IMG/VR virus record: IMGVR_UViG_3300023278_000857
Span: 1,398-65,397 of that record
Length of the DNA: 64,000 nucleotides
Source of the DNA: a virus
Direction: 5' to 3' (one strand)
The stretch's first letter is position 1, and each line of letters begins with the position of its first letter. The translations under genes and the position numbers were made by a program. Of the stretch, positions 7,439 through 46,918 are shown piece after piece. A model generated the notes under the pieces. The model was not told the origin of the DNA. It saw only the letters and a program-made list of their open reading frames with translations, and did not search any database.

Positions 7439-9880
7439 CTACGCATTCATAATGGCGTCTGCCCAAACCGCCCACATGCGTCGATAACCTTCAACAGTAG
7501 GATGGTATTGGTCTGACATTGTTTCCGCTTTGTTTAACTGATTGATGTTTGACTTTCCGTAAATATCCGCAACAGGGATACCCCACTTGTCTCCCAAAGA
7601 ACGAACTGCTTGCACATATTCATAGTAAGTCGAGCCATGCGAGTTTGTTGTTGTATCGTCGGGGTCGTGACCTGCGGCTAAACCAAACCCAGAAGTGATG
7701 CTAGTTAGAAACGCCTTATTCATTGTCCCTATAACAATCTTTGCATTTGGGTTTTTATCGTAAATCCGCTGGATCGCGAAGTTTAACGCACCAAGCATTG
7801 TGTCCAAGTCTGAATCCGTTAAGTCTGGATTTCCAGACCCATCAACAACATAAGGTACACACATGTCTATAGTCCCAATCGCGCTTTGATGCGTAATCGG
7901 GTCGTTCAGCGTAGCACTTAATAGGTAAATGTCGTATGTTTCAGCGGCTGGTTGTGCCAGCTCGTTTACCTGATAAACCCCTGATATGTTGTTTGGCGTG
8001 ACCCAAGTAGGTGTCGCAGTAATTGCCCAACCCGAGCCACCCATTGCATAAGTGTCAAACTTGCTTCCAAGCATACCGCGCAAGCGGGACTTTGAACGCT
8101 CTGCTTTCCAACTTTGGGCAACGCTATCACCCATAATAACAATACTTTTTCCACTGTTCGGGTTCCCCGCAAGAGATAAAGCAGCACGGCCATCAGTCTT
8201 AAACAAACGAATACCATCGTCTATAACGGATCCATCCATACACGAAACTAACAGTCTCTTTGCACCCGCAGGTGGCGTCCACGTGCTTGACCACTTTCCT
8301 ACCGGAGTTGTGTAACTATTAACTGTTACCGTGTCACAGTCAGCGCCAAGGTTGTTCAATGTGGTGCCGTTGTGTGTTATTGCCCCAAAGTTTTGGTTCG
8401 TGGTCAAAGGCAAGTGTTCGACTATCTCAAGGTTTGAAATTGCCTGTGAGTAATTGTTCTTTGGGTCATAGTGAAACATATAAGTTTCTGTGTCTGAAAT
8501 CGTGTAGCACCGAGTTTTAGAGAAACTATTTGATGGGGATGCGTTTTTGAATGTCCCATCACTCCACAAGTTCCCTACCATATCAAAATGGTCAACTTCG
8601 TTTTCATAAGCAAAAACGGCCTCATCGTCGCGCAGGGCAGCAGCTTGAACCGCTATTAAAGAACGGGCGTCTGCTATGGCAGTTATCTCATCTTCAGAAG
8701 TAACGCCACGAGTAGCCCCATCAGCCCTTACTTCATGCAGTTCCAAGTAATTTGAATATCCAGCCCCGAGGTCATACGCCGATAGCTTTAGTGTGACTGT
8801 CCCCTCTGGCACAAAGATAAATGGGTCTACGAAGGTTACATCCCCGCCCCACGAAGCCAGTATTGTTCCATTAGCATCTTCGGCGTGAATGTATCTGACG
8901 CCGCCTTGCGTGTCCCAAGTAATCTTATACAGGCCTGTCTTCTCTACTGTGAAGAGGTAGTTTCTGCCCCCATAGCCACCCACTGTTCCGTTGCTAATAT
9001 AGCTGCCCCCAGTAACAAACTCGATGAAGTAGCGAGCCACATAAGGCGAATTTACATAGCTACTTGACGGGTATCTAGCGACCTCCACTGCCACTGGTCC
9101 TGTGTCATGCCTATAACGAACAAGCTCATCGCCAACCGTCACAACAAACTGATCACTGACCGACGTTGCCGCAAGCCCTGCAGCAGTATCCGCGTAAACA
9201 TCTGCATTGACCGCTGCCGCGTCCCTTGCCGTTTCCGCAAGCGTTTGTGCCGCTACAGCGCCAGCCTGAGCGGCTTGAACGCCTGACTGTGCTGCCACCG
9301 CGTTTGTTTCTGCTGTTTCTGCTGCTACCTGTGCAACTTCTGCTGCTACCTGTGCAACTTCTGCTGCTACCTGTGCAACTTCTGCTGCAGTTTGCGCAGC
9401 TTGACCAGCGGAATCAGTTGCTGGTTTCCATTTAGAATCAGGAGCATCCCACTTTAATACTTGACCTGCCGCTGGCGGAGTAGTTGTTGTGTCTACATCA
9501 CTTAAATCTCCAATACTTTCAGCAGTAATATTTGTTAACACTACACCTAAATCACTAATTTGACTTTTGGTAATGCTAATTGCTGTTGTATCAAGCGGGG
9601 TAAAAGTAAAGACACCAGTTATGTTATTATATTCTAAATCTTGTGTGCCAGCCGCCGCAGTAGTAGCACTAAACGATGTTAACCCTACACCAAGTGTACT
9701 TAAACTAACAGTATTGCCGCCACTAATAGTTAAATCATTACCAACTAATGATAATGTTTGCCCGTCACTGTCTACAGCCGCCTCGAGTGTGCCAACTCTA
9801 GTGTCTAAATCAGTGAAGTTACCGTCTAACTCTATATGAGTTAACGCACTGCCTTTTACTAATCTTTTTGTTATTGCCAT
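7439..9880 (-). CDS. Chimeric tail fibre/spike with C-terminal SGNH (GDSL-like) esterase domain
   Basis: N-terminal LTHIELDGNF anchor, Ala-rich heptad stalk, SGNH blocks GDSVAQ / MGGSG / ATLND / SDQYHP. Confidence 0.8.
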   Translation of the reverse strand: MAITKRLVKGSALTHIELDGNFTDLDTRVGTLEAAVDSDGQTLSLVGNDLTISGGNTVSLSTLGVGLTSFSATTAAAGTQDLEYNNITGVFTFTPLDTTAISITKSQISDLGVVLTNITAESIGDLSDVDTTTTPPAAGQVLKWDAPDSKWKPATDSAGQAAQTAAEVAQVAAEVAQVAAEVAQVAAETAETNAVAAQSGVQAAQAGAVAAQTLAETARDAAAVNADVYADTAAGLAATSVSDQFVVTVGDELVRYRHDTGPVAVEVARYPSSSYVNSPYVARYFIEFVTGGSYISNGTVGGYGGRNYLFTVEKTGLYKITWDTQGGVRYIHAEDANGTILASWGGDVTFVDPFIFVPEGTVTLKLSAYDLGAGYSNYLELHEVRADGATRGVTSEDEITAIADARSLIAVQAAALRDDEAVFAYENEVDHFDMVGNLWSDGTFKNASPSNSFSKTRCYTISDTETYMFHYDPKNNYSQAISNLEIVEHLPLTTNQNFGAITHNGTTLNNLGADCDTVTVNSYTTPVGKWSSTWTPPAGAKRLLVSCMDGSVIDDGIRLFKTDGRAALSLAGNPNSGKSIVIMGDSVAQSWKAERSKSRLRGMLGSKFDTYAMGGSGWAITATPTWVTPNNISGVYQVNELAQPAAETYDIYLLSATLNDPITHQSAIGTIDMCVPYVVDGSGNPDLTDSDLDTMLGALNFAIQRIYDKNPNAKIVIGTMNKAFLTSITSGFGLAAGHDPDDTTTNSHGSTYYEYVQAVRSLGDKWGIPVADIYGKSNINQLNKAETMSDQYHPTVEGYRRMWAVWADAIMNA
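9317..9388. repeat. 21-bp tandem repeat, about 3.4 copies (encodes AAEVAQV heptads)
   Basis: TTCTGCTGCTACCTGTGCAAC at 9317, 9338 and 9359 plus a partial copy. Confidence 0.9.
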
Positions 9881-35569: not shown

Positions 35570-35660
35570 GTACAATAGTGGACCTCCTCTGTCTGCGTCA
35601 CTCTCACTCAACACTATTGTGCAAACTGGGGCTCGGTAAGACATCTTACCGAGCCTTCCT
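35570..35660 (+). ncRNA. Two-hairpin 3'-UTR element / sRNA candidate with a pyrimidine-rich loop
   Basis: ACAATAGTG/CACTATTGT stem with a CCTCCT-containing loop, then a 12-bp GGCTCGGTAAGA/TCTTACCGAGCC hairpin. Confidence 0.45.
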
Positions 35661-35674
35661 TATTATAAGTATTA

Positions 35675-35703
35675 TTGACAACCCCCAATAGATAGTGTAG
35701 TAT
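35675..35703 (+). promoter_or_regulatory. sigma70-like promoter for uvsW
   Basis: TTGACA-17bp-TAGTAT. Confidence 0.6.
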
Positions 35704-35710
35704 ATCAAAT

Positions 35711-37165
35711 ATGAAATGTAAAATTATTCTCAAAGACGAAGTCAACTGCAAAATTTCAGGATTGGACTTACAAACTCGTCGTAAATGTGAACAGAAATTA
35801 AAGTTTATGTTACCATACGCTAGACATGTTCCTGCTTATAAACTAGGACGTTGGGATGGTTGTGTTGGTTACTTTACTATGGGTGGCAACACATTTGTAA
35901 ATGCGCTGAGTCATATTATTCCAATTCTTCAAGAACAGCGATATGATTTTGATATAGAAGACAATCGTAAGAGTTGGGATCTAAAGTTTTCAGAAATAAC
36001 TGAAGATCATTTTAGTGATAGAGCATGGCCAGAAAAACATCCTGCCGCAGGACAACCTGTTGTACTACGTGATTATCAAGTTGCGATTATAAACAAGTTT
36101 ATATCCAATACACAAAGTATTCAAGAGATTGCCACAGGCGCAGGTAAAACACTAATGACAGCCGTGCTTAGTAATCTAATTGAGCCTTATGGCCGTAGTA
36201 TCGTTATTGTACCAAACAAAGATTTGGTTAACCAAACAGAAGCAGACTACATTAACTTAGGATTAGATGTGGGTGTATACTTTGGTGACCGTAAAGACTT
36301 TGGTAAAACACACACCATTTGTACTTGGCAAAGTTTAAACATTATGGAAAAACGTTTCCGTGATGGTGACCAAGACTGGGGACTAGACGATTTTGCTGAA
36401 GACGTAGTATGTATTATGGTAGACGAAGTACACCAAGCAAAAGCAGATGTACTTAAAAAACTACTAACAGGCTCATTCCGTAATGTGCCAATACGTTGGG
36501 GGCTAACAGGAACAATACCCAAAGCTGATTACGAACGACTAAGTTTAGAAGTAAGTTTAGGAGAAGTTGTGCATCAGTTAGCCGCAAGTGACTTACAGGA
36601 GCAAGGTGTACTGGCACAGTGTAATGTTAACGTACTACAGTTACAAGACACTGTTAGCTATGGAAACTATCAAAGCGAATTAACTTACTTGACAACTGAC
36701 AAAAATCGTTTAGACTACTTAGGAGACCTTATAGCAAACTTAGCTAAGTCAGGCAATACACTTGTATTGGTTGACAGAATTAAAGCAGGTGAAGGATTGC
36801 TGGAACGACTGGGTGAAGATGTTGTGTTTATTAGTGGCAGTATGAAGTCTAAAGATAGGAAAGATGAATATGATGAAGTTAGTGAAGCAGATAATAAAGT
36901 TATCATCGCAACCTATGGTGTGGCTGCCGTGGGTATTAATATTCCTCGTATTTTTAACTTGGTTCTTTTGGAGCCTGGCAAGTCCTTTGTAAGAGTAATC
37001 CAAAGTATTGGACGTGGTATACGTAAAGCACAAGATAAAGACAGTGTTCAGATATGGGACATAACTAGTAGTGCTAAGTTTAGTAAACGCCACTTAACTG
37101 AACGCAAGAGGTTTTATAAAGAAGCAAATTATCCGTTTAGGGTAGAGAAAGTCAATTTTAAATGA
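35711..37165 (+). CDS. uvsW: SF2 DNA helicase UvsW-like
   Basis: LRDYQ Q-motif, ATGAGKT, DEVH, GLTGT, QSIGRGIR. Confidence 0.88.
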   Translation: MKCKIILKDEVNCKISGLDLQTRRKCEQKLKFMLPYARHVPAYKLGRWDGCVGYFTMGGNTFVNALSHIIPILQEQRYDFDIEDNRKSWDLKFSEITEDHFSDRAWPEKHPAAGQPVVLRDYQVAIINKFISNTQSIQEIATGAGKTLMTAVLSNLIEPYGRSIVIVPNKDLVNQTEADYINLGLDVGVYFGDRKDFGKTHTICTWQSLNIMEKRFRDGDQDWGLDDFAEDVVCIMVDEVHQAKADVLKKLLTGSFRNVPIRWGLTGTIPKADYERLSLEVSLGEVVHQLAASDLQEQGVLAQCNVNVLQLQDTVSYGNYQSELTYLTTDKNRLDYLGDLIANLAKSGNTLVLVDRIKAGEGLLERLGEDVVFISGSMKSKDRKDEYDEVSEADNKVIIATYGVAAVGINIPRIFNLVLLEPGKSFVRVIQSIGRGIRKAQDKDSVQIWDITSSAKFSKRHLTERKRFYKEANYPFRVEKVNFK

Positions 37166-38066: not shown

Positions 38067-38521
38067 GTAAACTTAGCATTGCTAGCGAAATGAAAGCAAT
38101 TGATACTAAAGATCGTAACTGGTATAAAACACTTGATGATGAAGAACGTACAAAGTACGACAAACAAATGTGGATACAGCAGCGTTGGGCCAGTAGTGTT
38201 CAAGGCAGTAACGCAGTACAGTATCTAATCCTAGTTAATGACTATTCAAATGTTAACTTTAATCTACTAGCTAAACACCCAGAGCTACAGCTACAGTCTT
38301 TACAAATTGCTGGTGTAGGTAAAACACAAAAACATGATTGGATGCCTCCTGGTAAAAAAGGTAAAAAGAATAAACTAGCTGAATGGCTAGTAGCACAGTA
38401 TCCAGAATGTAATGATGATGAACTTATGATTTTAGCAGTAACAGGTGACAAAAAAGAGTTTTGTGATATGATGGAACAACAAGGAATGAAACCCAAGGAA
38501 ATAAAAGAGTTATTAAAATGA
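38060..38521 (+). CDS. Hypothetical protein (possibly clamp-loader small-subunit-like)
   Basis: 153 aa helical protein in the replication cluster; function is a guess. Confidence 0.5.
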   Translation: MVGKLSIASEMKAIDTKDRNWYKTLDDEERTKYDKQMWIQQRWASSVQGSNAVQYLILVNDYSNVNFNLLAKHPELQLQSLQIAGVGKTQKHDWMPPGKKGKKNKLAEWLVAQYPECNDDELMILAVTGDKKEFCDMMEQQGMKPKEIKELLK

Positions 38522-39171
38522 AGTGCGAGTATTGTGGCAAAGTTTTTAAGCGTGAAAGCACACTTATGTCACATATCTGTGAAAAGAAACGGCGATGGTT
38601 ACAAAAAGAGTTTCCTGAAACTATAGCTGGCTTTGTGGCATTTGATTTATTCTATCGTCTAGGTATGCAAAGTAAACCAAGAGAGTATTCACAGTTTGTT
38701 GACAGTCAGTATTTTAGTGCGTTTGTAAAGTTTGGTAGTTATTGTATTAATACTCGTGTCATTGATGCTGAAGCATATACACGATGGTTAGTACGTAAAC
38801 AAGCAAAGCTCAAGGACTGGGCAACTGACCGTATGTATATGCTGTTTATTAGAGAACATCTAAAAAAAGAAACAGTTGATAGAGCATTGGAAAGATTTGT
38901 AGAACACGCAAGTAAGACGTCTTACTTTGATACGTTCTGGGAAAGTGCTGGTGGTTATGTTATAGCAGATTGGGCAGAGAGTGGTAAAATATCTCCCTGG
39001 ATTATTATTTGTAGTAAACGAGCACAATCAGCATTAAACAATATGAATGAAGAATGCTTTAATCGTGTAGCAAACAGTATTGATGCTAGCCATTGGGGTA
39101 GAAAAACACAACAACAACCACAAGACGTGCAGTGGGTTAAAACAATTATAGACGGAGATAGTAATGCGTAA
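38518..39171 (+). CDS. C2H2 zinc-finger-containing hypothetical protein
   Basis: MKCEYCGKVFKRESTLMSHIC. Confidence 0.65.
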   Translation: MKCEYCGKVFKRESTLMSHICEKKRRWLQKEFPETIAGFVAFDLFYRLGMQSKPREYSQFVDSQYFSAFVKFGSYCINTRVIDAEAYTRWLVRKQAKLKDWATDRMYMLFIREHLKKETVDRALERFVEHASKTSYFDTFWESAGGYVIADWAESGKISPWIIICSKRAQSALNNMNEECFNRVANSIDASHWGRKTQQQPQDVQWVKTIIDGDSNA

Positions 39172-39457
39172 AATGTACAATAGTGTAATAGAGTTTTTTA
39201 AAGATAGTTATAAGTTTTCGCCGTTTGCGTTTTACTGTGAACTAATAGAGGCTGTAATGCTAATTAGTGCTAGTGCGGTGTTAACATACACAGTATTAGA
39301 TCCAGCAACTAAGATCTTTATTCCTATGTATTTGGTAGGCAGTATACTTGGTGTAATCAGCACATGGATTAGACGAGCAGGCTTTGCTATTGTACTAACA
39401 GTATGGTTTGTTGTAATGAATAGTATCGCTATGGTACAGTTATTTTGGTTGGGATAA
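39164..39457 (+). CDS. Small multi-pass membrane protein
   Basis: Three hydrophobic segments. Confidence 0.65.
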   Translation: MRKMYNSVIEFFKDSYKFSPFAFYCELIEAVMLISASAVLTYTVLDPATKIFIPMYLVGSILGVISTWIRRAGFAIVLTVWFVVMNSIAMVQLFWLG

Positions 39458-39460
39458 AGT

Positions 39461-40018
39461 ATGCCAGATATTGATTTAGACTTTGCTGATAGAAAACTAG
39501 CATTAAAGTTAGTACGTCATGTACCAGCAAGGATAAAAAGCAAGAAGCATAATACAGGTGTATATACACATCGTGTACCAGTAGATCCATTAAATGGCTA
39601 TTGTACACTGGATCATAAAATGGCAGATGAAAAGGGCTTCTTTAAATTAGATGTACTAAATGTTAGTATATACAAAGATGTAAGAGATAACGATCATCTA
39701 GAACAACTCATGAATAAAGAGCCAATGTGGCAATTACTAGAGCATACAGACTTTGTTGATAAAGTTTTTCATCTTTCAGGACATGATAAACTGCTAAAAC
39801 AATTACGTCCTAGTACACTAGAACAACTAGCGGCAACATTGGCAATTATACGTCCAGCTAAACGGCATTTGGCAAATCAAAGCTGGCAAAGAATACTACA
39901 AGAAGTCTGGACCAAGCCAGCTGGTAACGAATACTACTTTAAGAAAAGTCACGCTCATTCATACGCAATGGCGTGCATAGTACATATTAACTTGATATGT
40001 GAACAATTGGGATATTAA
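39461..40018 (+). CDS. Minimal DnaE/PolC (C-family polymerase) catalytic-core-like protein, 185 aa
   Basis: PDIDLDF (two catalytic Asp), FKLDVL (third Asp), IIRP, YFKKSHAHSYA. Confidence 0.8.
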   Translation: MPDIDLDFADRKLALKLVRHVPARIKSKKHNTGVYTHRVPVDPLNGYCTLDHKMADEKGFFKLDVLNVSIYKDVRDNDHLEQLMNKEPMWQLLEHTDFVDKVFHLSGHDKLLKQLRPSTLEQLAATLAIIRPAKRHLANQSWQRILQEVWTKPAGNEYYFKKSHAHSYAMACIVHINLICEQLGY

Positions 40019-40019
40019 C

Positions 40020-40757
40020 ATGAATAGAGATAATTTTTTACACGATTTAGATCATATAGGATTCACAGTTCAGCGTGATGCTTTTGATATAGAAAAGATA
40101 AACGAACTTAATAACTTTGCTGAAACAATAAGACCCGAACGTGGCCATACCAAAGATAAAAAATGGGTTGGATGGAATCAAGTAAACGATATTGAAAATC
40201 CCAAGACTGATATTGATTGGGCGTATTACTGGACTGAACAAGTTCAACATCCAATAATCAATGAAATGAAAAATACACTAGGACAATACGCAGACGCAGC
40301 ATTTGGTGAACATAATTGGGTATGGCATGTACAAGATTTTATTGTATTACATCCAGGTATGAACTTTTATCGTCCACATATTGATACACCTTATAGATTT
40401 CCAGAATTTCGATATAATCAAGAATTATTGGGTCTACAGTTTATGGTGATGATGTGTGATTTTAATGAACACAACGGAGCAACGGGATACGTTCCCGGAA
40501 CTCACAAATACATGTTCGATCCAAAAAGCATTCAAGACGATAAAAGCTGGGATACATTCTATGCCGACAACTATCAACAATACACAGCAAACGCTGGTAG
40601 TTTTGTAGCGTGGCATCCGAGGTTGCTACATAGTACTATGCCTAATAAAAGTAATGAAATTAGACGAGCATTATTACTACATGCGGCAGAAAAAACAACC
40701 AGTCGTAGACTAAGTGTAATTGATCCGCAAGTAAACAGTAATCTTAGAACTAGTTAA
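40020..40757 (+). CDS. PhyH-family 2OG-Fe(II) dioxygenase
   Basis: HIDTP (HxD), NGATGYVPGTH, WHPRLLHS...N...RRALL. Confidence 0.8.
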   Translation: MNRDNFLHDLDHIGFTVQRDAFDIEKINELNNFAETIRPERGHTKDKKWVGWNQVNDIENPKTDIDWAYYWTEQVQHPIINEMKNTLGQYADAAFGEHNWVWHVQDFIVLHPGMNFYRPHIDTPYRFPEFRYNQELLGLQFMVMMCDFNEHNGATGYVPGTHKYMFDPKSIQDDKSWDTFYADNYQQYTANAGSFVAWHPRLLHSTMPNKSNEIRRALLLHAAEKTTSRRLSVIDPQVNSNLRTS

Positions 40758-41133: not shown

Positions 41134-41178
41134 TGTTATTATTACTTATCACTATAAATAGTAGTGGAGATCCGAAAC

Positions 41179-41979: not shown

Positions 41980-42999
41980 ATGATAGTTTTAGATTTTGTA
42001 CGCCAGAGCATTCCTGGTGGCTGGAAACAGTCCCCAAGTGGATGGACAAGTGGTAATTGTCCAATGTGCCATACTCGTGGACACAGTAGAGATACTCGTG
42101 GACGTGGCGGACTAATGTTCCAGGACGATAAAGTTCAATACAACTGTTTTAACTGTAATTACAAAACAGGTTGGAGCCCTGGTAAACGTATTAACACAAT
42201 GTTATCTGATTTACTAGTAGCGTTTGGTGCTGACCCAGCACAAATACAACGAGTTAATTTTGAACTGCTTAAAGAGAACGAAAAAGATCAAGTAGCACAA
42301 CAGTTTATTTCAACTACTGAACGTAAAGAAAAAGCTAAAATTACATGGCAACCCATGGAATTGCCAACTAACGCAACTACTTTTGATAAATGGGATACTG
42401 ATACACTAACTCCAAGACAACTAGAAAGTTTTATAAACGCAGTACAGTATGTTGAAGAGCGTGGAATGAGCTTCTATGATGGTTGGCAGTGGACACCAGA
42501 AAGCCATTTCAGAAATCGTATCATATTGCCGTTTTACTATAAAGGAAAAATAGTAGGGTATACAGCACGTTGGGTAGGAAAAACTCCTGACAAAGCTACA
42601 CCAAAATACTATCATCAGATGCCTAAACACTTTGTTTATAATATAGATAAACAACGTACACATAAGTATACGATCGTTACAGAAGGTCAAATGGACGCAC
42701 TATTAGTAAATGGCATTGCTACTAGCGGTAATACACCAAGTAACGTACAGTGTGATATTATTGATGATCTAAAAAAAGAAGTTATAGTTGTGCCAGACGC
42801 AGATAAAGCAGGCATGGACTTGGTTAAAACAGCAATCCGTAGAGGATGGAACGTAAGTTTTCCCCCTTGGGAAGACTGTAAAGATGCGGCAGATGCTGCT
42901 GTAAAATATGGTAGATTATTTACAGTGAGGAGTATTTTAGACAGTGCTGAGAGTAATTCAACAAAAATACAACTACTAGCAAAGGGATACTGTAGGTAA
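41980..42999 (+). CDS. gp61: DNA primase (DnaG/gp61-like)
   Basis: N-terminal Zn finger CPMC...CFNC, TOPRIM IVTEGQMDA and PDADKAG. Confidence 0.88.
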   Translation: MIVLDFVRQSIPGGWKQSPSGWTSGNCPMCHTRGHSRDTRGRGGLMFQDDKVQYNCFNCNYKTGWSPGKRINTMLSDLLVAFGADPAQIQRVNFELLKENEKDQVAQQFISTTERKEKAKITWQPMELPTNATTFDKWDTDTLTPRQLESFINAVQYVEERGMSFYDGWQWTPESHFRNRIILPFYYKGKIVGYTARWVGKTPDKATPKYYHQMPKHFVYNIDKQRTHKYTIVTEGQMDALLVNGIATSGNTPSNVQCDIIDDLKKEVIVVPDADKAGMDLVKTAIRRGWNVSFPPWEDCKDAADAAVKYGRLFTVRSILDSAESNSTKIQLLAKGYCR

Positions 43000-43000
43000 T

Positions 43001-43231
43001 ATGTTTAAACCAATAAGTGCTTATAGTGATTTACAAAGTTATTGGACTAAGCATTTTGCTTGGACACCAACACGTAGTGATCATAGCGGAAAGTTTATTT
43101 GGTTGACAAATTACTGGGAATACGCTATAACTATGGATATGAATGGCGCAGTACCACGCAAAGGTGATGCTTGGCGAATGATCTACACTCGAGAGGAATA
43201 TATATTGAAGAAGTTAACAAATAATGAGTGA
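43001..43231 (+). CDS. Hypothetical Trp-rich protein
   Basis: Coupled between primase and helicase. Confidence 0.6.
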   Translation: MFKPISAYSDLQSYWTKHFAWTPTRSDHSGKFIWLTNYWEYAITMDMNGAVPRKGDAWRMIYTREEYILKKLTNNE

Positions 43232-44609
43232 AGAGTACACAGAAGATTTACAAAAGTTATATCTAGAGTTTTTACTTGCTGACAAAGATTTGTTTGTACG
43301 CTGTAATGCGATTACAAATAGCAAATACTTTGTTCGTAAGTATCAGCCTGTTATGGACTTTATACAAGAACATGTTGAAGGTTATAATGACTTACCAACA
43401 CATGAACAAATTAAAGCTAAAGTAAGAATTGAATTTGACGATGTAAGAGCAAAGATTACTGATGACCATAAAAAATGGTTTATGGATGAATACGAAAAGT
43501 TTTGTAGACACAAAGCACTTGAAGGTGCTATCTTGGAAAGTGCTGATAAATTAGAACGGCATGAGTACGGAAGTGTTGAGCAACTGATTAAAGATGCTGT
43601 TGGTATTGGCCTAGCAAAAGACTTTGGACTTAACTACTGGGATGATCCAGCAGGACGTATACAAGCAATTAAAGACAATCGTGGACAAAATAGTACTGGT
43701 TGGGAGAGCTTGGACAAAGTATTGTATGGTGGATTTAATCCAGGCGAACTAAACATCTTTGCTGGTGGTAGTGGTAGTGGTAAAAGTTTGTTTATGCAAA
43801 ACATGGCACTCAACTGGAGTTTGGCTGGCAAGAATGTAGTGTATGTTAGTTTAGAGCTTAGTGAAGAACTATGTAGTATGCGTATTGATGCTATGGTTAC
43901 AAACCAGAGTACTAAAGATGTTATGCGTAATGCTGATGATACAGCACTTAAAGTTAGAATGGCTAGTAAAAAAGCAGGCGTACTACAAATGATACAAATG
44001 CCAAATGGTGCCACAGTTAATGATATTAAGGCATATATTAAAGAATATCAGATTCAAAACGACATTAAAATTGATGGATTGTTTGTAGACTATTTGGATC
44101 TTATGATGCCTGTTAGTGTTAAAGTTAATCCAAGCGATCAGTTTATTAAAGACAAGTATGTAAGTGAAGAACTACGTAACTTGGCTATTGAGCTTAACAT
44201 ATTGTTTGTTACAGCCTCACAGTTGAATCGTGGTGCTGTTGATGAAGTAGAGTTTGACCACAGTCACATTGCTGGTGGTATTAGTAAGATTAATACAGCA
44301 GACAACCTAATCGGTATCTTTAGCTCAAGAGCAATGCGTGAGCGTGGTAGAGTACAGATCCAGTTTATGAAAACACGTAGTAGTAGTGGTGTTGGGTCTA
44401 AACTAGACTTGGGCTATGATATGAATACACTTAGAATTACAGACTTGGATGAAGATGAACAAGGCGAAGCTGGACAAGTGGCAAGTATCTATCAGAGCTT
44501 AAAGAATAAAGCAACTGTTAGTCCTGCTGGTACTGAGTCAGCACAACCTGATAATACCGCAGTGGAAAACGCCGCAAGATTACAAAATTTACTTAAACGA
44601 AGGGAATAG
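43224..44609 (+). CDS. gp41: Replicative DnaB-like helicase (gp41-like)
   Basis: GGSGSGKS P-loop, SLEL, VDYLDLM, TASQLNR, KTRSS. Confidence 0.9.
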   Translation: MSEEYTEDLQKLYLEFLLADKDLFVRCNAITNSKYFVRKYQPVMDFIQEHVEGYNDLPTHEQIKAKVRIEFDDVRAKITDDHKKWFMDEYEKFCRHKALEGAILESADKLERHEYGSVEQLIKDAVGIGLAKDFGLNYWDDPAGRIQAIKDNRGQNSTGWESLDKVLYGGFNPGELNIFAGGSGSGKSLFMQNMALNWSLAGKNVVYVSLELSEELCSMRIDAMVTNQSTKDVMRNADDTALKVRMASKKAGVLQMIQMPNGATVNDIKAYIKEYQIQNDIKIDGLFVDYLDLMMPVSVKVNPSDQFIKDKYVSEELRNLAIELNILFVTASQLNRGAVDEVEFDHSHIAGGISKINTADNLIGIFSSRAMRERGRVQIQFMKTRSSSGVGSKLDLGYDMNTLRITDLDEDEQGEAGQVASIYQSLKNKATVSPAGTESAQPDNTAVENAARLQNLLKRRE

Positions 44610-44823: not shown

Positions 44824-45060
44824 ATGAAACGTAAAACGAGATCTATTTTAGAAGAAATTAATTCGATGTCACCAAAGCGTGATAGACGGCAACTTGTTGA
44901 AGCAAATGCCGCTCAGGTAATTGCTACGGCAATTAACCTAATTGAATTAATTAATGAAACATTTGATGACGAAACTGCTGCAGACTTGAATAAAAGATTA
45001 ATTAATTCAATTCGCACAAAGGATCCTCGGAAGTTTAAAAGAGGAGTATCAAAGCTGTGA
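44824..45060 (+). CDS. Small putative head-internal protein
   Basis: MKRKTRSILEE|; first gene of the late operon. Confidence 0.6.
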   Translation: MKRKTRSILEEINSMSPKRDRRQLVEANAAQVIATAINLIELINETFDDETAADLNKRLINSIRTKDPRKFKRGVSKL

Positions 45061-45845
45061 AGATTAAAGACATACTAGGCGGAATGAGCAAACGCAAAAT
45101 CCGTCGTGGAAGCCGTATTAAAAGATTAAGACAAGAAGATTTACATCTTAGAGAAGGTGGCAATGTATTTCCTGACAGCGTAGGATTTGATCACAAACTA
45201 ATACCTGGCATTATGAAATCAATTAATTCAGTACTGGCAAAAACTGGCAGTACTGCTATACCAATTGGTAGTGGAGCAACTCCAACACCTGGTAAAGTAA
45301 GCGGCGACTTGGATATGATTGTAGACGTTAATCAACTGAAACAACATTTTAATATGGAAGACGCTAAAGATGGTGATATCCGTAAAAAACTACGTCAAGT
45401 ATTTGACTTAGCAGGATTTAACACAGGGCAAAGTGGCACTAGTGTACACGTAGAAGTTCCAATTGGTGATAATACACACCAAGTAGATGTTATGGTAGTA
45501 CCAAATGCTGGCAATGCGGCAAAGTTTCATACACACAGTATTCCACAAGGTTCAAAGTGGAAAGGTGTAAACAAGCAAATAGCATTGGCTAATTTAGCTA
45601 GAAAACAAAACTTATTGTGGTCAAACTTCCAAGGTCTATTTAAAAGACTGGAAAATGGTAAAAAAGACCCAAATGGATTAATTACAGATAACATTGATAA
45701 AATCGCACAGATATTATTAGGCCCTAATGCCACAGGAAAAGACATGGGCAGCGTTGAGAGTATTATGGCAGCGTTGGGTAAAGAAGCAGGTGATGCACTA
45801 CTGGTAGATTTAAGAAATGATCCTAACTGGAAAGAACTAGAATGA
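45057..45845 (+). CDS. Pol-beta-superfamily nucleotidyltransferase-like protein
   Basis: IGSGATPTPGKVSGDLDMIVD (hGS...DxD) and QVDVM third Asp; basic leader ending HLRE|G. Confidence 0.65.
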   Translation: MKIKDILGGMSKRKIRRGSRIKRLRQEDLHLREGGNVFPDSVGFDHKLIPGIMKSINSVLAKTGSTAIPIGSGATPTPGKVSGDLDMIVDVNQLKQHFNMEDAKDGDIRKKLRQVFDLAGFNTGQSGTSVHVEVPIGDNTHQVDVMVVPNAGNAAKFHTHSIPQGSKWKGVNKQIALANLARKQNLLWSNFQGLFKRLENGKKDPNGLITDNIDKIAQILLGPNATGKDMGSVESIMAALGKEAGDALLVDLRNDPNWKELE

Positions 45846-46918
45846 AAGCCCGTCAATTTTTAGCAGAAGCAGCCAAGGTAGGGCGTGAATATCAACACCT
45901 CGAAGACCTTGTGTTTGCTGAAGGCAGTGCCGGCGCCCTACGAGCGGCGAGTATATTACAAAGGCTCGGACAAGATTCAAATGATGTAGCTATTAAATGG
46001 GACGGGAACCCTACTATCTATTGGGGAAGAGAAGCAGACGGAACGTTTGTACTAACTGGTAAAAATGGTTGGGGTAAAAATAAAAGTACTAGCAGTGATG
46101 ATCTAAAATCATTTGTTATGAGTACTGGTAAAGGCGAAGACTGGCGACAGGAATTTGCTAATAACATGGGCGATGTATTTGACATCATGCAGCGTAACAC
46201 ACCAAATGATCTACGTGGCTTTATATATGGTGACTTATTGTACTCACCAAGCAAACCATACGTATCAAACAACGACTCATATCAGTTTGAACCAAATAGT
46301 GTTCTATATACTGTAGATGCTAATAGTGATCTTGGCAAGAGAGTTGGCGCAAGTAGTATTGGTATTGCGGCGCACAGTATATACGGAGAGTTTGGTGACA
46401 AAACTGGCACTCCTATTAAAGATACAAAAAGAATTAATACTAATGAAGTGGTAGTTATGGGACAAACATACGTACCGCATCAAGCTAGTGTAGATACTAG
46501 TTCAGTAGAAGCCATTATAAAAGCAACTAATGCTAATGCTCAAGCAATTGATAACTGGTTAACACCTGAACAAGGGCTTAGTAACAAAGGTAATATCATT
46601 TATACATACGTAAATCAAATGGTAAAACAAGGTAAATTAAAGCAATTACAAAGTGGTTTTTTCGATTGGTTAAAAACTAGTAAAGTAAGTGCTGGGCAAC
46701 AAGCAAAGTTAATGGCAGGAGATTCCAATGGACTGTCAGCAATTTTAGGCTTAGTTGTACAAATTATGACAGTAAAAAATAATATTATTGATCAGCTAGA
46801 CAATGCTCCAGCTGATGTAACAGCAACTACAAAAGGTGAAAGTGGTGGCGAAGGTTATGTAGTAGGTAGAGATAAGATTAAACTTGTGCCAAGACATCGC
46901 TGGACACCAAACTTATAA
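45842..46918 (+). CDS. ATP-dependent ligase-fold (RNA-ligase-like) protein
   Basis: Motif I IKWDGN, motif III IYGDL, motif IV GEGYVV, motif V IKLV; N-terminus MKARQFLAE|A. Confidence 0.6.
   Translation: MKARQFLAEAAKVGREYQHLEDLVFAEGSAGALRAASILQRLGQDSNDVAIKWDGNPTIYWGREADGTFVLTGKNGWGKNKSTSSDDLKSFVMSTGKGEDWRQEFANNMGDVFDIMQRNTPNDLRGFIYGDLLYSPSKPYVSNNDSYQFEPNSVLYTVDANSDLGKRVGASSIGIAAHSIYGEFGDKTGTPIKDTKRINTNEVVVMGQTYVPHQASVDTSSVEAIIKATNANAQAIDNWLTPEQGLSNKGNIIYTYVNQMVKQGKLKQLQSGFFDWLKTSKVSAGQQAKLMAGDSNGLSAILGLVVQIMTVKNNIIDQLDNAPADVTATTKGESGGEGYVVGRDKIKLVPRHRWTPNL

Follow-up and report, generated by a model that had tools for sequence, protein, structure and literature searches.

Bacteria replicate their DNA with polymerases of family C, which normally have more than 1000 residues. 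A split minimal DNA polymerase III (Pol III) alpha, found in jumbo phages of group 2.2, was described from sequence by Iyer, Anantharaman, Krishnan, Burroughs and Aravind in 2021 (Viruses 13:63, section 3.4.1; PMC7824862). In these phages the split enzyme accompanies a family B polymerase (PolB), and the authors suggested that the two polymerases may work together, either to synthesise one of the strands or in repair; they also proposed that the split enzyme is the ancestral minimal form of Pol III (PMC7824862). Here we describe an open reading frame (ORF) of 185 amino acids (aa), running from ATG to TAA at positions 39461-40018 (+) of a 64,000-nucleotide (nt) stretch of viral DNA (positions 1,398 to 65,397 of the IMG/VR record IMGVR_UViG_3300023278_000857; hereafter the window). 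This ORF is almost certainly a member of the split minimal Pol III alpha family of group 2.2 (RaK2, PA5oct, Atu_ph07-like) jumbo phages.

The ORF adds a member to an already published family, and its reading as such is not new. To the published description (PMC7824862) the present analysis adds a fixed break point, natural fusions, structural models and the conservation of the steric gate. We refer to the product of the ORF as the C-half and to its partner as the N-half. The C-half is probably one of two subunits, the C-terminal one, that together make up a minimal DNA polymerase of family C.

The C-half and its relation to DnaE

The features of the C-half gene are as follows.

39461-40018, +: putative C-terminal (Mg2+- and template-binding) half of a split minimal Pol III alpha, 185 aa
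39461-39484, +: MPDIDLDF, residues 1-8, with the DxD straight after the start codon; aligned to E. coli DnaE 399-406 and M. tuberculosis DnaE1 413-420
39548-39559, +: HNTG, residues 30-33, equivalent to E. coli HAGG 511-514 by motif position and by model strands 21-25 and 28-35
39644-39652, +: K62-L63-D64 with the third catalytic Asp (within KLDVL, 62-66), equivalent to E. coli K553-F554-D555 by alignment and conservation
39851-39865, +: R131-P132-A-K134-R135, the RP of the DnaE 'FRPGP' followed by two family-specific basic residues; aligned to E. coli 639-641
39938-39964, +: FKKSHAHSY, residues F160 to Y168, the 'O-helix' motif, with S163/H164 equivalent to E. coli S759/H760; aligned to E. 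coli 753-767

The C-half gene is real, intact and constrained, as follows from its profile match, its many full-length homologs, the kept gene order, the low ratio of nonsynonymous to synonymous substitution (dN/dS) and the invariant residues. The profile of PHROG 11778 ('DNA polymerase', 197 positions), which we take as the C-half family, matched the ORF end to end (E=5e-58), while the Pfam match, to the finger domain of Pol III alpha, stayed below the threshold (E=0.003). The dN/dS computed by the Nei-Gojobori method against relatives of 80-95% amino-acid identity was 0.08-0.10. Among 106 C-half sequences, with identity down to ~29%, residues D3, D5, K62, D64, R131 and P132 were invariant, and D7, H30, G33, K134, K161 and H164 were at least 90% conserved. 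The basic residues K134 and R135 may have a phosphate-binding role.

We observed that the family profile is collinear with E. coli DnaE at 399-421, 598-641 and 753-767; the single C-half sequence aligns with M. tuberculosis DnaE1 in the same collinear manner. In this alignment D3, D5 and D64 correspond to E. coli D401, D403 and D555, R131-P132 to R639-P640, and S163-H164 to S759-H760. The three aspartates are the active-site residues of E. coli DnaE, and H760 is its steric gate for deoxynucleoside triphosphates (dNTPs) (PMC8485763). What differs is the spacing. About 383 residues of DnaE are squeezed into 185 in the C-half, with 59 residues from D5 to D64 compared to 152 from E. coli D403 to D555. 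According to the alignment and the model, the thumb (E. coli about 422-510) is replaced by a tight beta-hairpin made of strands 21-25 and 28-35, and the fingers are reduced to 23 residues compared to the 111 that lie between 641 and 753 in E. coli.

The structure of the C-half was predicted by AlphaFold2 with the 106-sequence alignment. The model had a mean predicted local distance difference test score (pLDDT) of 94.6 and a predicted template modeling score (pTM) of 0.86. In a Foldseek search against the PDB each of the 14 best matches was a chain of Pol III alpha, with probabilities reaching 1.00, E values from 2e-3 and TMq 0.4-0.5. The fold aligned to E. coli DnaE residues 400-781, the end of the C-half corresponding to about 781; known structures of the canonical enzymes are 2hnh, 3e0d and 5lew for DnaE / Pol III alpha and 3f2b for PolC. 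Thus, the C-half carries the metal-binding triad (D3, D5, D64), K62, reduced fingers and an O-helix with the steric-gate H164.

The original prediction, made from the letters of the window, had reported these motifs in a 185-aa ORF and had seen in it a drastically reduced C-family segment that keeps the catalytic motifs; the motifs are present as described, and both the collinear profile and the aligned fold agree with such a segment. It had also listed the PHP, OB and clamp-binding regions and most of the fingers as missing, which we confirm; the thumb and the GRGS half of the palm are absent as well, the latter having gone unnoted. The comparison with Pol III alpha by AlphaFold and Foldseek that it proposed has the outcome given above. 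Overall, its observation was confirmed and its interpretation was supported in part.

Full-length homologs of the C-half were found in 96 sequenced phages, nearly all of them jumbo phages, in agreement with the original prediction, according to which annotations of short DnaE-like ORFs exist for related jumbo phages. Identity to the C-half was ~35% for the RaK2/121Q group, 44% for the PA5oct group, 46% for Atu_ph07 and 50% for Sinorhizobium phage Phosso, the closest ortholog in a cultured phage. A megablast search with 5 kb around the gene had no match among the sequenced phages, and no close cultured relative exists. A metagenome protein collection contained C-half homologs in at least 7,975 clusters at 90% identity, all of ~185-195 aa, and 400 representatives at the 50% level. 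The length was just as uniform in IMG/VR, where the C-half had 184-196 aa in 74 of the 75 loci with the ORF recovered and 208 aa in the remaining one.

A search for longer homologs returned only P0121 (350 aa), which shares the last 109 residues of the C-half behind an unrelated N-terminus and was rejected as a fusion. Another protein, P0215 (233 aa), has the first ~105 residues of the C-half joined to unrelated sequence. Both are rare, each being a single-member cluster, with P0121 coming from one 2-kb contig; they are probably assembly or recombination chimeras.

Partner N-half, break point and natural fusions

The C-half has neither the GRGS loop nor the helices that precede the DxD in every C-family polymerase. 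In complete relatives we found a second small ORF, of 172 aa in RaK2 and 177 aa in Phosso, that scores above the cut-off of Pfam PF07733. These N-halves, which form PHROG 11127, end as '...GLGRGSSV...DLDVNEFLKY' in RaK2 and as '...GVGRGSSV...ELDFDEFLN' in Phosso, that is, they stop where the C-half starts. In all 80 IMG/VR loci examined the N-half has the GxGRGS motif and stops 35-40 residues later; therefore, the whole family breaks at one fixed point. A 133-kb IMG/VR contig (G001), the closest larger relative, has a C-half 95% identical to ours, and there a 170-aa N-half, likewise above the PF07733 cut-off, lies 65 kb downstream on the same strand. In locus coordinates this N-half is L090:1507-2016 (-). 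The N-half is also found in the near-complete uncultured genomes G004 and G005, and both of these genomes, picked via the N-half, carry a C-half too.

On sequence grounds the two halves belong together, because their counts per genus agree and because natural fusions exist. The numbers of phage records for the two halves were 34/34 in Escherichia, 8/8 in Erwinia, 8/8 in Salmonella, 4/4 in Xanthomonas and 11/10 in Klebsiella; surplus N-half matches among the phage records were ordinary full-length phage DnaEs. Three natural proteins of 375-376 aa (P0233, P0272 and P0273) consist of the N-half, a linker of 8-9 residues and the C-half. They are 78-81% identical to each other and come from two different sources, and the PF07733 match spans the junction (E=5e-16). 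The alignment of fusions, N-halves and C-halves was checked before use, two earlier MAFFT versions having been discarded for misplaced N-halves or tails. We conclude that the remainder of the Pol-beta-type palm, with the GRGS loop, comes from the partner of ~170 aa, and that the two halves make up one domain in the natural fusions. In the nearest C-half relatives of the fusions, P0274-P0282 (51-59% identical), the C-half is an ORF of its own, 206-222 aa long and starting at the DxD.

The original prediction had found no complementary fragment in the window, and we found none in the window or on the whole 72.6-kb source contig, where Pfam PF07733, phmmer with the RaK2 and Phosso N-halves and a GRGS regular expression were used. 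The only match of the regular expression, at 9156-9413 (-), is a low-complexity G/R-rich frame and not a homolog. The contig is ~20% complete and reaches only ~31 kb downstream of the C-half gene. Given the 65-kb spacing in G001, a missing N-half is to be expected here and is uninformative about the phage itself.

An intein or trans-splicing was ruled out as the way of joining the chains, since there is no space for it at the junction: the C-half starts with M-P-D-I-D, the N-half stops 35-40 residues past the GRGS, and the linker of the fusions has 8-9 residues. With no room for split-intein pieces, the chains would therefore have to associate non-covalently. The natural fusions point to the assembly of the separate N and C chains.

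We also observed a small ORF of 63-178 aa that trails the N-half gene at a distance of -4 to +37 nt in 67 of 80 loci (L092-L171); examples are L090:1109-1507 (-) and L004:1802-2161. It belongs to PHROG 14844 and has ~55 conserved first residues (…RG..IDM..L…N…VGN..MNARGD.L…G.V…). Because of its tight coupling to the N-half gene, its product is a candidate for an accessory role with the split enzyme.

Gene neighbourhood and PolB in relatives

The C-half gene sits in a packed plus-strand block, where a UvsW-type helicase gene is followed by four small conserved genes of unknown function, the C-half gene and a gene for a PhyH-family dioxygenase. Beyond the latter there are one minus-strand gene, a virion-protein gene and then the genes of a DnaG-type primase and a DnaB-type helicase.

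35628-35703, +: strong terminator-like hairpin (13-bp stem with 7 G-C pairs, 35628-35657), then a sigma-70-like promoter match, ahead of uvsW (consensus scan)
35711-37165, +: UvsW-type helicase, opening the packed block (Pfam ResIII and Helicase_C; PHROG 16)
38518-39171, +: C2H2 zinc-finger protein of 217 aa, function unknown (PHROG 11058), syntenic, two genes upstream of the C-half gene
39164-39457, +: hydrophobic protein of 97 aa, directly upstream of the C-half gene, no family match
39999-40757, +: PhyH-family (phytanoyl-CoA dioxygenase-like, 2-oxoglutarate- and Fe(II)-type) oxygenase, directly after the C-half gene (Pfam E=2e-22), start probably the ATG at 40020
41980-42999, +: DnaG-type primase (PHROG 47, E=2e-34; Toprim_2)
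43224-44609, +: DnaB-type replicative helicase (DnaB_C, E=3e-22; PHROG 19, E=8e-73)

Pfam and PHROG thus bear out the primase, helicase and UvsW neighbours named in the original prediction. The order from UvsW to the primase and DnaB around the C-half is the same in RaK2 and Phosso. Since these two phages have no gene at the position of the PhyH gene, the latter seems to have been inserted into the conserved order in a particular lineage. The zinc finger of the protein encoded at 38518-39171 is N-terminal and of the C2H2 type, and RaK2 and Phosso have unnamed genes at the equivalent position. The proposed link of the 38060 and 38518 products to the polymerase found nothing in its favour beyond the conserved gene order. 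Further downstream, two genes at 45057-46918 (+) gave a DUF6267 match (E=6e-28), and 45057-45842 (+) had no Pfam or PHROG match.

The hairpin and the promoter match ahead of uvsW might mark a transcription-unit boundary and a possible start of the uvsW unit; the number of promoter matches in the consensus scan was not above chance. The late-promoter motif TATAAATA was not enriched in the window (10 found compared to 8.5 expected), and none was found directly upstream of the C-half gene. The only nearby T4-type late motif, at 41153, lies after the uvsW block. The place of the C-half gene in this block may point to early or middle expression.

A PolB-type gene was present in all seven larger relatives with a match (RaK2, Phosso and G004-G008). 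It is a single frame of 881-1013 aa in six of the seven. In G005, a 327-kb IMG/VR contig, there are frames of 723 and 330 aa, situated ~2.4 kb apart at about 256955-260417, which suggests either an inserted element within the gene or a division of PolB over two genes.

Activity, alternatives and known systems

We propose that the two chains associate non-covalently and form one active site that would add dNTPs to a primer on a template. The use of dNTPs is predicted from the conserved steric gate. Real templated DNA-polymerase activity seems somewhat more probable than its absence. Such an enzyme would have low intrinsic processivity and act on short patches, since it has no thumb, no OB or clamp-binding module and no PHP domain. 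It would probably fill gaps or serve in repair or recombination-dependent synthesis alongside a family B replicase, and be expressed together with the uvsW gene block.

Several points weigh against the C-half being a subunit of a two-piece polymerase. The N-half and the PolB of the source phage are predicted from relatives, neither being on the 72.6-kb fragment. The C-half is without the thumb and, in the fingers, without the ~110 residues of E. coli positions about 645-750, where the YQEQ motif lies (at 686), so templated synthesis by the split enzyme may be weak or dependent on further partners. In the literature we found no experimental work on the split enzyme, only the computational description of 2021; the Sharanji paper has 'DNA polymerase III DnaE' among its listed annotations.

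The chief competing explanation is that the two-piece enzyme is some other nucleotidyltransferase, such as a template-independent terminal transferase, an RNA- or primer-tailing enzyme or a nucleotide-signal synthase, that keeps only the Pol-beta-type core of DnaE. We regard it as rather unlikely, for a different chemistry would fit poorly with the conserved steric gate and with fingers specific to DnaE. It is quite improbable that the 185-aa protein works alone as a minimal polymerase or primer-extension enzyme. All three metal-binding aspartates are in the C-half, and the confident model (pLDDT as given above) was obtained for this chain by itself. Still, the original notion of a self-contained polymerase core was not supported: the GRGS half is a separate co-occurring gene and is fused to the C-half in three natural proteins. 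The chance that the C-half is a remnant without catalysis, or what decay has left of a full-length dnaE, is negligible. Its size of about 1/6 of a normal DnaE and its abrupt start at the catalytic motif could give that impression. The original prediction had named a dN/dS near 1 as the sign of such decay; the observed value is far lower, the length is uniform across the IMG/VR loci and thousands of clusters, the catalytic residues are invariant and the fold is confident. These selection and conservation tests refute decay.

The roles first considered for the ORF included one half of a split enzyme, which is supported by the co-occurring N-half and the natural fusions, and a replicase, which is probably wrong because every complete or near-complete relative checked has a PolB-type gene. 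A main-replicase role for the split mini-Pol III is very improbable. The C-half gene does lie beside those of the primase and the replicative helicase, and the suggested search for PolB and other DnaE parts found none on the source contig, nor was PolB found on the 133-kb G001; however, these contigs are only ~20% and 37% complete. In relatives both the N-half and PolB were recovered, and PolB was present in RaK2, in Phosso and in each of five large uncultured contigs. Modules for clamp binding, for the docking of proofreading (PHP) or for processivity are missing from the split enzyme.

Returning to a two-piece polymerase, we put forward a more specific model only tentatively. Encoded 30 to more than 200 kb apart in different gene clusters, the halves may form an active thumb-less polymerase of ~355 aa, the smallest of the C family known, which could serve UvsW-linked recombination-dependent or repair synthesis; a further partner (the PHROG 14844 'NARGD' protein or a phage clamp) might give the grip on DNA. 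If this is true, the assembly would be a minimal experimental model for the build-up or paring-down of bacterial replicases. A conserved and extremely abundant two-chain enzyme of this size would define the minimal catalytic unit of family C. The split enzyme also bears on the origin of Pol III, as an ancestral minimal form or a secondary reduction, and on what T4-like giant phages gain from a second polymerase.

Compared to canonical DnaE and PolC, the split enzyme keeps the catalytic triad and the steric-gate histidine (D3, D5, D64, H164). Canonical enzymes start with an N-terminal PHP domain, whereas the C-half begins at the DxD and has no PHP match. Their palm is complete within one chain, while that of the split enzyme is made of two polypeptides; correspondingly, the C-half does not reach the PF07733 gathering score, which both the separate N-half and the natural fusion reach. 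The thumb, beta-clamp motif, HhH, OB and tau-binding region of the bacterial enzymes are missing from the C-half, and the total size is ~355 aa compared to more than 1000 (1160 aa in E. coli).

The Ssp and Npu DnaE of cyanobacteria are joined by a split intein, with the halves spliced into one chain. The likeness is that a C-family polymerase is made from two distant genes. The difference is that the facing ends here have no split-intein segments and that the break is elsewhere. Pol X of African swine fever virus, a viral Pol-beta-fold enzyme, has a nucleotidyltransferase fold and a fingers subdomain and works in short-patch repair beside a family B replicase (PMC11646218). As a minimal viral Pol-beta-fold polymerase next to a family B enzyme it is a functional analogy and not a relative, since it belongs to family X instead of C, is a single chain and is experimentally characterised.

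The closest match remains the family of Iyer et al. The ORF shares with it a Mg2+- and template-binding C-unit of ~185-200 aa with intact metal-chelating acidic residues, and the T4-like (group 2) replication set of UvsW, DnaG and DnaB. A distant gene for the N-terminal NTP-binding unit and a PolB, both absent from the 72.6-kb contig, are present in relatives such as RaK2 and Phosso. Nothing essential separates the ORF from that family; its source is an uncultured phage.
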